Notes: generated by a model not told the origin, from the letters alone. A DNA stretch of 64,000 bases from Polyangiales bacterium (GCA_044229975.1 JBGARZ010000014.1:64001-128000), one strand, 5' to 3'; shown: positions 41,475-56,378, counted from the first letter of the stretch. Made by a program: numbers and translations.

Positions 41475-42221
41475 ATGAGCCTCTCGGTGCGAGTCGTCGG
41501 CGTCGGCGATGCGTTTACGTCGCGGTACTACAACGCGTGCCTGCTGGTGGAGGCCGACGACACGAGGTTGCTCATCGACGCTCCGCCCGCGCTCGCCCGC
41601 GCGTTGCGTGAGCTCGGCGACCGCGGCGGCCCGGTGATCGGCCTCGACGACGTCGACCATGTGCTCATCACGCACCTGCACGGTGATCACATGGGCGGTC
41701 TGGAGCAGCTCCTCTTCTGGCGGCACTTCGTCACGCGCAAAAAAACCACGGTGCACGCCATCCCGGAGGTTCTCGCGGGGCTCTGGGAGCACCGGCTGCG
41801 CGGCGGCATGGACGTGCTGATGGACGCCGACGGCGCGCGTCATCCGCTCACGTTGGAGGACTACGCCGAGGTGCGACCGATGCCCGCGGCGGGCGAGGCG
41901 TTCGGCATCGGTGCGCTCACGGTGGAGTGGCGGCCGACGGTGCACCACATCCCCACGTCGGCGCTGCGGCTGAGCGCCAATGGCAGGTCCGTCGGATACA
42001 GCGCAGACACGGCCTTCGATCCGTCGCTCATCGCGTGGCTCGCGCGCTCCGACCTCCTCCTGCACGAGACCAACTACGGCACGCACACCCCGCTGGCGAG
42101 CCTGGTCACGGTCGAGTCCGCGGTGCGCGATCGCATGCGGCTCATCCACTACTCCGACCTCCACGACGTCGACGCCTCGCCCATCGCGTGTGCTCGCGAG
42201 GGCGACCGCTACGAACCGTAG
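41475..42221 (+). CDS. MBL-fold metallo-hydrolase (RNase Z-like)
   Basis: GVGDAF, THLHGDH, YSADT, LHE, HT. Confidence 0.88.
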   Translation: MSLSVRVVGVGDAFTSRYYNACLLVEADDTRLLIDAPPALARALRELGDRGGPVIGLDDVDHVLITHLHGDHMGGLEQLLFWRHFVTRKKTTVHAIPEVLAGLWEHRLRGGMDVLMDADGARHPLTLEDYAEVRPMPAAGEAFGIGALTVEWRPTVHHIPTSALRLSANGRSVGYSADTAFDPSLIAWLARSDLLLHETNYGTHTPLASLVTVESAVRDRMRLIHYSDLHDVDASPIACAREGDRYEP

Positions 42222-42243: not shown

Positions 42244-43953
42244 GTGAGCGCATCATTCGACTACGACGTGCTGGTCGTCGGCTCGGGCTTCGGCGGCTCG
42301 GTGTCGGCCCTGCGCCTGACGGAGAAGGGCTACCGGGTCTGCGTCATGGAGCGCGGGCCCCGCTGGAAGCCGCAGGACTTCCCCAAGACCAACTGGAACC
42401 TCCGCAAGGCCCTCTGGATGCCCGCGCTGGGGTGTTTTGGCATCTTGCGGTTGTCGTTCATGTCGGACGTGTTCGTGCTCTCGGGGGCGGGCGTCGGGGG
42501 TGGGTCGCTCGTCTACGCCAACACGCTCTACGTGCCGCCCAACGCCTTCTTCGAGGCGTCGCAGTGGGCCGCGATGCGCGACTGGAAGAGCGCGCTGATG
42601 CCGCACTACCGGGTCGCGCAGTTCATGCTGGGCGTCACGCAGAACCGCTTCGAGTCCGAGCCCGACCGCGTGTTGCAGTCGGTGGCCAAGGACCTCGGGC
42701 GCGGCGATACCTACGTGACGACGCCCGTCGCCGTGTACTTCGGCAGCGCCAACCAGACGACGCCCGACCCGTACTTCAATGGCGCCGGACCAGACCGAAC
42801 GGGCTGCAACCACTGCGGCGGCTGCATGGTCGGCTGCCGCTTCGGCGCCAAGAACACCCTCGATCGCAACTACCTCTACTTCGCCGAGAAGCTCGGCGCG
42901 GAGGTGAAGCCCATGCGAACCGTGGTCGACGTGAAGGCCCTGCCCGATGGTGGATACGCCGTCACGCACGAGGCGACGGGCGCGTGGTTTGCGCGCGATC
43001 GGCAGGTGACCACCGCGCGCCGCGTGGTGCTCTCGGCGGGCGTGCTCGGCACGGTGAAGCTGCTGCTGGAGAGCAAGGATCGCGGGTCGCTGCCCAACGT
43101 CTCGAACATGCTCGGGGGCCTGGTGCGGACCAACAGCGAGGCCATCCTCGGGGTGAGCACGCCGAAGCCGACGGAGAAGTGGTCGCGGGGCATCGCCATC
43201 ACGTCGTCGATGCACCCCGACGAGCGAACGCACATCGAGGTGGTGCGGTACAGCGAGGGGAGCGACGCGCTGGTTCCGTTGTCGACGCTGCTGACGGACG
43301 GCGGCAGCGGGGCGCCGCGGTGGCTGAAATGGATGGGCAACGTCGCGCGCCAGCCGGTGACCTTCGTGAAGAGCCTGTGGCCCTTCGGGTGGGCCAAGCG
43401 GGGCGTGTTCCTGCTGGTGATGCAGACGCTCGACAACTCCATCGCGCTGCGGCTGCGTCGCACCTGGCGCACGCTCTGGAGCCGCGCGCTCGACACCGAC
43501 CGCGGCGAAGGAGAGCCCAACCCCTCGTACATCCCGCTGGCCAATCAGCTCGCGCGGGTGTTTGCGGGGAAGGTCAACGGCGTTCCGCAGTCGTCCATCA
43601 TGGAGGTGCTGTTCAACACGCCGACGACGGCGCACATCCTCGGCGGCGCGCCCATCGGCGACTCCCCGACGACGGGCGTCATCGACGGGCGCAACGAGGT
43701 GTTCGGGCACCCGGGGCTGTACGTGTGCGACGGGTCGATGATCCCGGCGAACCTCGGCGTGAACCCGAGCCTCACCATCACCGCGCTCACCGAGCACGCG
43801 ATGAGCCAGATTCCTGCGAAGGATGGGGCGGAAGTGAGGCACGCGGTGGACCCGGAGTTTCAGGCGAAGCGCGTGGCGGAGATCGAAGCGCTGTCGGTCG
43901 AGACGGGGAGCGCGTCGCTGCAACGGCACCTGCCGATACACGCCGGGGAGTGA
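42244..43953 (+). CDS. GMC oxidoreductase, cholesterol oxidase ChoD-like
   Basis: VVGSGFGGSVSALRLTEKGY, GAGVGGGSLVYAN, CNHCGGCMVGC, TAHILGG, NLGVNPSLTITAL; GTG start 42244. Confidence 0.9.
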   Translation: MSASFDYDVLVVGSGFGGSVSALRLTEKGYRVCVMERGPRWKPQDFPKTNWNLRKALWMPALGCFGILRLSFMSDVFVLSGAGVGGGSLVYANTLYVPPNAFFEASQWAAMRDWKSALMPHYRVAQFMLGVTQNRFESEPDRVLQSVAKDLGRGDTYVTTPVAVYFGSANQTTPDPYFNGAGPDRTGCNHCGGCMVGCRFGAKNTLDRNYLYFAEKLGAEVKPMRTVVDVKALPDGGYAVTHEATGAWFARDRQVTTARRVVLSAGVLGTVKLLLESKDRGSLPNVSNMLGGLVRTNSEAILGVSTPKPTEKWSRGIAITSSMHPDERTHIEVVRYSEGSDALVPLSTLLTDGGSGAPRWLKWMGNVARQPVTFVKSLWPFGWAKRGVFLLVMQTLDNSIALRLRRTWRTLWSRALDTDRGEGEPNPSYIPLANQLARVFAGKVNGVPQSSIMEVLFNTPTTAHILGGAPIGDSPTTGVIDGRNEVFGHPGLYVCDGSMIPANLGVNPSLTITALTEHAMSQIPAKDGAEVRHAVDPEFQAKRVAEIEALSVETGSASLQRHLPIHAGE

Positions 43954-43956
43954 GAC

Positions 43957-44243
43957 TGACGTTTGGAGTAGGTGTTGGTGTCGGTTGGAAAGCGTCGGCT
44001 GCCTGTTCGCGGCCCTGCGATGTCAGAAGAAGCCGCCAGGGCGCAAGGGTCGCAAGGACGAGTTCTCATCGCAAAACGTGCCTCGGTTTCGCGAGACGGG
44101 GAGCGCGAGCGACTGGAGCCTTGTCGCGCCCATCCCACCGCCACCTTGCGACCCTTGCGTCCTGGCGGCTTCTCCCCTCGTCGCAGGGCTGCGAACGCAC
44201 AGCCGACTCTCTCGCGCACCACCGACGCCTACTCCGAGTCGCA
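43957..44243. mobile_element. Putative MITE / foldback palindromic element with 10-bp target-site duplication
   Basis: TG...CA ends; ~100-nt imperfect inverted arms (43957-44057 vs 44144-44243); flanked by identical GGAGTGAGAC at 43947-43956 and 44244-44253. Confidence 0.7.
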
Positions 44244-44294
44244 GGAGTGAGACGCTCCGCTTGACGGGAGTCGTGAGAGGGGGCGAGCGTTGAT

Positions 44295-46086
44295 GTGATG
44301 CCGTACCGCGAGCCCACGCTGAGCGGGCCTGGGGAAGGGGCGGCACGACCGCGTTTGGAGCTGGTGCTCGTTCCGTTGCTCGCGGTGTTGGGGGTGAGCG
44401 GTGGTCTCGCTGCGCGGCGTGCGTCGAGTCGGGAGCTGCACCGTCCGGGCGCGGTGGTTTCGACGGGAGACGTCGTGCGGTCGGACGCCGCAGTCTGGGC
44501 CGCGGGGCTACAGCCGGACGGAAGTCAGCAGGTCATCGCGGGTCCTGTGCGCTTCGTCGTCTCGTCGTCGAAACGAGTGGAGGTCGCAGCTATGCGGTTC
44601 GAACACGACATCGCCGTCGCCACCGAGGTGCGTGACGGATGGGTGTTCGCCACCACCAGCGGCGACGTCGCGCGAAGCGACTCCTTCCTCGGTCCGCTGC
44701 GACCGCGTGGGGCGGGTCGGCGTGCGCGTGCGCGATGTGCCGCGTAGGGCGGTCGGGTGCGCGGCCATCCTCGGGTTCAACGGCGACCTCTGGGTCACCG
44801 CGGGGAGCGGCCTTCCGGTGCGAGCAGAGCTGCCGGGGCCGGTGAGAGATGCCGTCTTCGGCGATGATCGAAGCGGCGTCGCGTGGCTCAACGACCTGCG
44901 CGTCGAGGTCACCACGGATGGAGGGTTGACCCGGTCAATGCCTGGGCTGGCAGGCGAGTTCGCGCGGGGTCTCTACCTGGGGTCATCGGGCGTGACGGTG
45001 CAGACGACAGGCGGGCATCTCGTGCTGGGCGTTGACGGCAGGCTTCACCATCGTGCGGACGCCGGGCGTCCCGAAGTTCGGCAGCCCGAGAGCGGGGCCC
45101 TCCGCAACCAACTGAACGCTACGGGAATCAGGATCAGCGCGGTGTACGTCTCGCCCACGGGCGCGATGAGCCTGGGCGGGCCGCATGAATGGCCGCACGA
45201 GCCCATCGCGGCTGCGTCCATCGCAGGTTGGTCTACATACCAGTGCCGGTATGGCGGCGACGCTGAGGCGACGTACCGATCGGTCGGTGTGACCGGTTCG
45301 GTGCGCTGGTTGGGGTGGGCGGTGACGCCACGCGGAAGGCTGACGACGCGAAGCGGTGCGGCGACCGCGCTCGCATGGGTCCGCGCTGGGGGGCAGGTCG
45401 TCCCGATTCCCGAACCCATGCTGGACGAGGCCGACGACGACAGAGTGTCGGTCGGCCAGGTCTTCGCGCTCCCGGACGGGGGCGTCGTGTTTGTGGTGAG
45501 CAGCGGGTTGAGACGCCTCAGCGATTTCCGTGACGCGGGAGTGGCTCTCGACGTTGGACCCGATGGTCGAGTCCGGGGGCGCCGGCCGTTCAAATGGGGG
45601 CGCGGCGAGGCCGTGGTCGCCATCGCGCGCCAGGGGCGATGCGCGGGGCCGGTCGTCGGAGCGCAGTACCCCGGAGTCGTACGGATGCTGCCGATCGCCG
45701 ACGCTGCACGCGCTTGCACGAGGACTGGTCCGATTGAGCTGCCTTCGCTCGATGGCTCCACGCTGCGGCCCTGCCGCCGACCGACCTCCGAGGACGCCAT
45801 CGTGATTGCGACGCACGAGCAATTCGTCAGCCTCCTGGCGGACCTCGCAGCGCAACACTCGCCCGACGACACTCTGTTTTCGCTCGTGACGCGCGCTGGG
45901 GTCGAGTCGAGTGGCACCGGGCATTGCCTCCGAGATGTGACCATCGTGGCGCCCGACAACGCACCGAACCGCGAGATCACCCTCACGGCCCGGGGCGACG
46001 GGTTGGAAGGGAGCGTCGACCTCGATGTGGTCGGCGCCCCGACCGCGTGGCGTCGCGTGCGCTGCGAGCCGCTGCACGCGCGGTAG
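44295..46086 (+). pseudogene. Probably frameshifted hypothetical exported protein
   Basis: ORF 44295-44747 has a TM and protein-like sequence up to DSFLGPLR; plausible sequence continues in the other frame (RVGRVG...) to stop 46086; atypical codon usage by eye. Confidence 0.5.
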
Positions 46087-56097: not shown

Positions 56098-56378
56098 GGT
56101 CCCTGTCGGGTAGCTCGTCCACGGGTTGCGGTCGTGTGGTCGGTGCTCAAGTACCGCGCCGTCACGGGCTGCGACGCCGCAGGGTGCGGTGTCGCGCGAT
56201 GGTCTACCGCGCGCGGGGATTGGCGCCGGAGGGATGGGCCGCAAGGATCGGAGTACGTGTTGGCGTCGTGGGTGAGGATCGACCACGGCCGCCTCGCGTC
56301 GCCCAGACGCCTCATCCGAACCCCAGGTACCAGGTCGGTCCTTGACAGGGTGTCGCGGAGGGGTCGACAGAGGCACCC

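Follow-up and report, generated by a model that had tools for sequence, protein, structure and literature searches.

Insertion sequences of the IS4 family are defined by a D(60-110)D(100-150)E triad, the signature Y(2)R(3)E(6)K, C or CT ends, and a target-site duplication of 7-13 bp (PMC2266710, accessible text). The word "promoter" is absent from the main text of that survey, and in the literature searched, fixed promoter targeting is described only for Mutator-like elements. The accessible text of PMC3942029 describes Mutator-like TnGBS/ISLre2 (p-MULT3) and ISKra4 (p-MULT4) elements, which insert 15-17 bp upstream of the -35 element and generate a duplication of 8-9 bp; a contact with the RNA polymerase initiation complex was proposed by its authors as a model. 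Long inverted arms around a Y1 tyrosine transposase characterize the TIRtrons/TIRYT (PMC3733652, accessible text), while REPIN/RAYT systems consist of extragenic inverted doublets with a variable spacer, at about 100 per genome, and a RAYT gene (bioRxiv 10.1101/2021.07.10.451892, accessible text). For the GxxExxY family (TIGR04256, PF13366 PDDEXK_3), no link to repeats was found in the accessible literature searched under these names. Neither promoter homing by an IS4-like enzyme nor nesting of hairpins of the kinds described below was found in the accessible literature searched. ISfinder or the supplements of PMC3942029 and PMC2266710 may already list element ends belonging to the IS4-like family reported here.

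The locus examined lies within a 64,000-nucleotide stretch of a Polyangiales genome (the window; the genome is termed G000), where the gene upstream encodes a GMC oxidoreductase. It contains a gene-less element of 289 bp, CTG...CAG, at window positions 43956-44244, flanked by the 8-bp target-site duplication GAGTGAGA and composed of three nested layers (Table 1), rather than the single homogeneous element of the initial annotation. In contrast to TIRtrons and REPIN/RAYT systems, as their accessible texts describe them, a Y1-derived arm and an inner hairpin core are here passengers inside the ends of a DDE transposon. The element is probably a mini-transposon with IS4-like ends, pasted 8 bp upstream of a -35 box by a DDE transposase supplied in trans. 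Direct support comes from the ends, the duplication, a fixed spacing seen family-wide, a complete copy that carries the transposase, and the make-up in three layers. What appears to be new, within the literature searched, is the parent family and the nesting; the 289-bp copy itself is an old MITE.

Table 1. Features of the 289-bp element and its flanks (coordinates in the window)
Feature	Position	Strand	Remarks
Left target-site duplication GAGTGAGA	43948..43955	+	overlaps the GMC oxidoreductase stop codon (43951-43953)
Left terminal inverted repeat, IS4-like family	43956..43974	+	PWM score 31.9; slightly decayed
Left mid-arm, start of Y1 (IS200-like TnpA) foldback cassette arm with internal deletion	43988..44018	+	approximate limits
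Left GxxExxY-family core, CGCAAGG-periodic 30-mer	44028..44057	+	meets the Y1 arm at the common GAAGCCG
Spacer, 86 nt	44058..44143	.	44085-44097 matches the GxxExxY cassette leader motif at 12/13
Right GxxExxY-family core	44144..44173	-	
Right mid-arm, Y1-cassette arm start	44183..44213	-	approximate limits
Right terminal inverted repeat, IS4-like family	44226..44244	-	PWM score 26.9
Right 8-bp duplication copy	44245..44252	+	junction also in one 151-nt contig, run X3, no mismatch
TTGACG, -35-like box	44261..44266	+	separated by 16 nt from the element and by 8 nt from the duplication

The initial annotation had placed a 287-bp TG...CA foldback element between two copies of the 10-mer GGAGTGAGAC, taken as a 10-bp duplication. 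The foldback element is real, the 10-mer is indeed present at 43947-43956 and 44244-44253, and its left copy does contain the TGA stop codon of the GMC oxidoreductase gene. However, the boundaries are fixed at CTG...CAG by the ends of the IS4-like family, and the duplication is 8 bp long: its two further letters, C (43956) and G (44244), belong to the element as terminal bases, and each is matched by chance on the opposite side. At fixed ends, an exact 8-mer is expected by chance with a probability of about 6e-5. An orthologue of the GMC gene (L010) terminates with the same letters, GGGGAGTGAG, indicating that the left copy is the native gene end. As originally described, the arms are about 100 nt long, and on either side of the spacer the inner 30-mers can pair at 29 of 30 positions; over their whole length, the arms have 79 matches in 103 columns. 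The element appears to have no coding capacity, being crossed by short ORFs only (83-120 aa), and its 19-bp ends fall within the 15-30 bp typical of MITE terminal inverted repeats. An exact 16-nt repeat connects the coding tail of the GMC gene (43899-43914) with the spacer (44092-44107). Since the GMC side of this repeat is conserved in orthologues, part of the spacer may stem from conversion by nearby DNA.

Fourteen orthologous GMC loci were fetched, one of which is cut by a contig end. All of the 13 informative loci lack the element, and the downstream gene differs in every one. No true empty allele was found among these 13 loci, in eight congeners searched for the downstream gene, or in sparsely covering sequencing runs, because the orthologous loci have other downstream genes and the one present here was not found in the eight congeners. 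Nor did the sequencing runs yield a joint across the element (sparse cover; all shares ≤0.17). A whole-element search of G000 finds a single copy, with no second copy of the exact 289-bp composite, which may have arrived whole or been assembled in place. The copy looks old and is probably inactive: its two arms agree at 77%, and a matching transposase was not detected in G000.

Neighboring genes have features of their own. Directly upstream of the GMC gene (41475-42221) is a metallo-beta-lactamase-fold gene that passes the Pfam cut-off for anti-Pycsar Apyc1. The downstream gene (44295-46086) has no Pfam match; it probably starts at MPYREP (ORF 44295-44747), whereas a 561-aa ORF (44401-46086) is read in another frame, and a frameshift is possible.

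On each side, the outer 19 bp form a terminal inverted repeat typical of one unclassified family of IS4-like insertion sequences, with the end consensus CTG[GA]GATTCGGAGTA[GC]G. Position 1 is C in 90 of 91 family ends, and at a score of at least 20 there are 38 matches to the end motif in G000 versus 2 in the control. G000 has 14 pairs of such ends; the 8-bp duplication is exact in 4 of them, and in 10 the flanks agree at k-1 or more of k positions (k = 7 or 8); when the flanks of these pairs are swapped, the corresponding counts are 0 and 2 of 182. Duplications of 7-9 bp, each a different 7- to 9-mer, surround 22 of 54 two-ended elements when duplication length is chosen blind to the TTG motif discussed below, versus 12 of 2862 swapped combinations, flanks from related genomes being not fully independent. 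Their length is 8 bp in 12 elements, 7 bp in 8, and 9 bp in 2. These sister elements bear out the original idea that the element is mobile but non-autonomous (a MITE) and that its target-site duplication is real. The rate is 17 of 22 for elements from genome assemblies and 5 of 32 for those from metagenomes. Collapsed assembly is our interpretation of the low metagenome rate: TTG stands on both sides in 7 of the remaining 27 metagenome elements, and for 3 of 5 left ends in one assembly, 7-8-bp duplications identify a partner right end on another contig.

Other arrangements of these ends were also observed. A second, decayed element of about 85 bp lies in the window at 56242-56326; it has IS4-like ends and no core, and TTGACA is found 16 nt past its right end. 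In G000 at C32:170641-170948, two tandem IS4-like shells, separated by 7 nt that resemble the duplication, stand upstream of one TTGACA, a case of repeated insertion at one promoter. At C20:448460, an element has kept one IS4-like end and lost the other, and its flanking duplication is near-perfect over about 30 bp.

A complete autonomous copy is present in a congener (L145:702-3016). It is 2315 bp long, with the same ends and an 8-bp duplication, GTAGTAGT, and has a single ORF of 565 aa that matches Pfam DDE_Tnp_1. Its product, an IS4-like DDE transposase, is likely the mobilizing enzyme, which the initial annotation had left unnamed. Residues D191, D288, and E441 are conserved in 84, 85, and 86 of 87 sequences, respectively; with Y434, R437, and K449 included, the range is 83-87 (K449, 85). 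By sequence, no relative with a solved structure was found for the transposase. Structure prediction gives a model (pLDDT 89) whose closest match is Tn5 transposase, with an E of 1e-10, a Z of 19.6, and an rmsd of 4.9 over 335; the Z for ISCth4 is 9.1. Of 7998 candidates scored, 878 are homologues, with 145 representatives at E 1e-30. The transposase is found in 1 of 61 relatives and in 5 of 401 genomes of a phylum sample, and it was not found in G000, a 93%-complete genome. At 85 loci encoding relatives of the transposase, many of them truncated, the end motif occurs within 900 nt on the 5' side in 58 and on the 3' side in 33, and an unbiased inverted-repeat search returns the family end as the best pair in 17 of the 85. 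Some family elements carry passenger genes (L085, 2142 bp; L149, 6.2 kb).

The family shares with the IS10 and IS50 subgroups of IS4 and with their MITEs (PMC2266710, accessible text) a single ORF, the DDE triad, the Y..R...E motif, CT ends, a 7-9-bp duplication, and a Tn5-like fold, which here is predicted. In contrast to the definition given there, the D-E spacing of 153 lies just outside the range of 100-150 (the D-D spacing is 97), and the lysine is 7 rather than 6 residues after the glutamate, so that Y434, R437, and E441 are kept and K449 gives E(7)K. The elements, at 2.1-3.1 kb, are also larger than the 1.2-1.55 kb of these subgroups. No NCBIfam cut-off is passed (NF033592, 28 bits versus 115; distant homologues, at most 79). 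The absence of a passed cut-off, together with the departures in E-K spacing and size, is the reason that the family is called IS4-like rather than IS4. There is no match to the NCBIfam models of ISKra4, ISLre2, or IS256 at E 0.1, and hhalign against the ISKra4-type protein of G000 gives no profile match (probability 0.3%).

Candidate parents within other families were rejected. A Mutator-like parent has no PF00872 match in G000 (a PF06782 search gave no signal in any control). The ends of an ISKra4-like gene on C8 are GGG and not those of the element. A CGCCTACTCCG stretch follows an IS701 gene on C8, but no matching end is present there or at five related loci. An ISAs1 gene (L087) is bounded, inside the end motif, by CAGGGC ends of its own. 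This last locus (L087, about 600-2230) consists of an IS4-like end, 24 nt, and then a whole ISAs1 element, beside an apparent CRISPR array. On C8 (L026:94-2798), a 5'-truncated IS701-family gene precedes an ISKra4-like element that looks intact and has GGG ends and a duplication of 8 bp.

The ends and their parent bear on two quite different accounts of the hairpin. It is most improbable that the hairpin owes its origin to selection for a terminator or structured RNA downstream of the GMC stop codon, with a duplication that arose by chance. A very stable fold does follow directly after the GMC stop codon, and mismatches between the arms lean toward G-U pairs on the + strand (9, versus 4 on the - strand, with 8 others and 3 gaps); the initial annotation had described single stem mismatches as G-U compatible on the + strand. 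However, this lean gives p = 0.27 and thus fails to establish selection at the RNA level or a bias to one strand, and the two strands and DNA fold about equally well (z versus shuffles of -10.8 for + strand RNA, -10.3 for - strand RNA, and -9.8 for DNA), which leaves the claim that folding was selected as RNA unsupported. Rfam returns only look-alikes of microRNA-precursor hairpins and no family near threshold (the best, MIR918, is a generic hairpin at 59 bits versus a gathering score of 268), and no terminator-like site was found at the locus. The 13 orthologous loci without the element and the small chance of an exact 8-mer at fixed ends also argue against this origin, which is largely refuted; a secondary effect on transcript stability is possible. 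Less probable still is a REPIN/BIME, in which a RAYT would move outer ends that are REP sequences tagged with GTAG, even though the IS4-like ends contain GTAG, a short palindrome follows some of them, and a Y1 cassette is indeed the source of the mid-arm. These ends delimit DDE transposase genes (at the loci counted above) and carry 7-9-bp duplications; no such end is seen in the flanks of the L002 Y1 gene, and the best inverted repeats surrounding other Y1 genes are different sequences. For the outer ends, this account is refuted.

The insertion sites of the IS4-like family share a feature outside the element. In G000, 17 of 40 ends have a TTG[AC] that starts 14-16 nt outside them (background 1.4%), and across the family TTG[ACT] begins 14-17 nt outside 30 of 77 unique flanks, on either gene side (background 2.4%). 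TTG is exactly 8 nt beyond the duplication in 20 of the 22 elements that have one, just as at the locus described here. For other end types, the enrichment is small (4/58, 0/13, 1/26, and 0/11). When 82 flanks are selected on TTG alone, the unselected motif TAnnnT is found at a spacer of 16-18 in 20 of them, versus 0-2 at non-overlapping offsets, and thus many family sites look like real σ70 promoters. The initial annotation had placed the insertion at a gene end; the target feature is instead the downstream -35 box. At the element's own site, the TTGACG box presumably served as the targeting landmark, and a good -10 box was not found after it. A paralogue of the downstream gene, on C34 of G000, has the same upstream TTGACGGG and the same first codons, with no element present. 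Taken as a whole, the family appears to home to promoters, likely guided by the transcription machinery. Like TnGBS/ISLre2 and ISKra4 (PMC3942029, accessible text), it combines a set insertion distance upstream of the -35 element with a similar duplication length and a terminal C, and it inserts in both orientations when the two ends are near-identical. The enzyme, however, is unrelated and Tn5-like, so that the family works similarly but is not a member of that group.

The inner layer belongs to a much more numerous repeat. Its 26-mer has 208 copies (≤5 mismatches) at 116 loci in G000 and none in the reversed genome; these loci comprise 89 inverted pairs, 1 double pair, and 26 single copies, and 11 of the 116 are inside called ORFs. 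The spacers of the pairs are 38-119 nt long, with the exception of one of 602 nt, which encloses the only GxxExxY gene of the genome (C2:61612-62265). There and in relatives, the core 30-mers are the arms that enclose the gene; the 289-bp element differs from such cassettes in having no gene. Cores differ less within a doublet (1.48) than between doublets (2.47). Across 31 genomes, 7 strong GxxExxY genes occur in 6, with the core upstream of 5 of the 7. Thus, a GxxExxY nuclease, which the initial annotation had suggested as one possible partner, is the right guess for the inner core and the wrong one for the outer ends, which belong with a DDE transposase. In GxxExxY cassettes the leader motif lies between core and gene. 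Its match in the spacer is placed at roughly the expected distance and is likely a deletion remnant, as judged from sequence, but it is a weak hint because just 1 of 88 spacers carries it (the background is 0.00065 per 76 nt). With its extragenic inverted doublets, conserved units, variable spacer, and high copy number (about 100 per genome), the core resembles REPINs. In contrast to REPIN/RAYT (accessible text of the source cited above), its units are not palindromic, and the gene that it flanks is of the PD-(D/E)xK type, GxxExxY, not a RAYT. A direct-repeat search around the 89 doublets stayed at chance level because wrong boundaries were used.

Between end and core, the middle layer aligns with the starts of the arms around a Y1 (IS200-like) transposase gene in L002 and also with L280, L288, and L285, the best match being L280. 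This origin from long inverted arms around a Y1 tyrosine transposase is the point of likeness to the TIRtrons. L280 itself is 372 bp long; it shares the ends, contains a complete Y1 hairpin, and is flanked by an 8-bp duplication, with TTGACA at 16. In the 289-bp element, the Y1 arm stops at GAAGCCG, a 7-bp sequence common to the GxxExxY core. Core matches are absent from the four Y1 loci. The core is present between two IS4-like ends at 7 loci, beside IS630 ends at 21, and beside a third ("B") end type at 8, and 68 of the 116 core loci are without any of these three shell types; of 12 gene-less Y1 hairpins, 3 are inside IS4-like shells. Two 215-bp copies consisting of shell plus core are 94% alike and occupy different sites, and therefore composites can move whole.

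Shells of other types were noted as well. An intact IS630 element (C32:623276-624808, L274), which by eye has an apparent short MarR-like passenger ORF, has ends that are the shell of the 21 IS630-type core hairpins; several of these are 100% identical, indicating recent mobility. A fourth shell type, starting GCAGGTTGAAACCC, has both ends around Y1 hairpins at C23:258710, C34:360175, and C39:140205. On C26 (L005), a 53-bp unit forms two long inverted arrays with a short Y1_Tnp match between them, an arrangement that is REPtron-like.

Alternatives also bear on how the transposase finds its site and on how the layers came to be nested. The transposase might itself read TTGAC as a distal target motif, with no host factor and with the same ends and duplication. 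A fixed 8-bp offset fits such a direct read-out equally well, and a clear -10 box is missing here and at many other sites (62 of the 82 flanks are without TAnnnT). On the other hand, the -10 box is enriched 17 nt past the hexamer even though the flanks were chosen on TTG only, and the -35 hexamer is degenerate (TTGA, TTGC, TTGT). The -10 enrichment is not decisive, because TTGAC is itself enriched in promoters of GC-rich genomes. From the sequence patterns, direct read-out seems unlikely, and docking on RNA polymerase would be the more probable route. Regarding the interior, it is possible, though less likely than not, that the core invaded the MITE by active homing, with the GxxExxY nuclease and the Y1 HUH enzyme inserting hairpins into existing hairpin loops. 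The core is equidistant from both ends in all three shell types, core doublets favor gene 3' ends (46 of 102 are at convergent ends versus 268 of 1153, by a crude ORF call), and the core precedes most of the GxxExxY genes, as noted above. However, the activity of GxxExxY is given as "Unknown" in the accessible text of PMC3424549, a GxxExxY gene was not detected in two relatives that each contain about 100 core matches, and the junction of Y1 arm and core falls on the common GAAGCCG, which suggests recombination or template switching. We lean slightly toward an interior swap by recombination and template switching rather than nuclease-driven homing into hairpins.

Together, promoter docking and interior swapping would give the following course of events. 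A DDE transposase supplied in trans would paste the IS4-like ends, presumably by cut-and-paste transposition as in Tn5, and leave an 8-bp duplication. The transposase likely docks on promoter-bound RNA polymerase, and the strand cut nearest the -35 box would be fixed 8 bp away, while the far cut floats; the duplication could then be 7, 8, or 9 bp long, and the distance from end to TTG 15, 16, or 17. The order of nesting, as we infer it, begins with a short MITE whose interior was a Y1-cassette hairpin. Exchange between hairpin families would then have replaced this interior with a GxxExxY hairpin at the common 7-bp sequence, and copying from arm to arm may keep the two arms alike.

As a tentative generalization, a Tn5-fold family may have evolved homing to σ70 promoters independently of ISLre2/ISKra4, through docking on RNA polymerase, with shells that swap HUH and GxxExxY interiors. 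Promoter-finding transposases are rare in the literature searched. Here, a Tn5-fold enzyme, a sharp geometric rule, and 878 homologues make the question testable against the best-studied bacterial transposase structure, and the family might also provide a tool for insertion beside genes without breaking them. If this generalization is correct, three unrelated enzyme systems would share one mosaic replicator, in which shells are both vehicles and landing pads. The nesting shows an overlap of populations among bacterial MITEs, the arms of TIRtrons, and GxxExxY hairpins, and it offers REP-like hairpins a route of spreading without an enzyme of their own.
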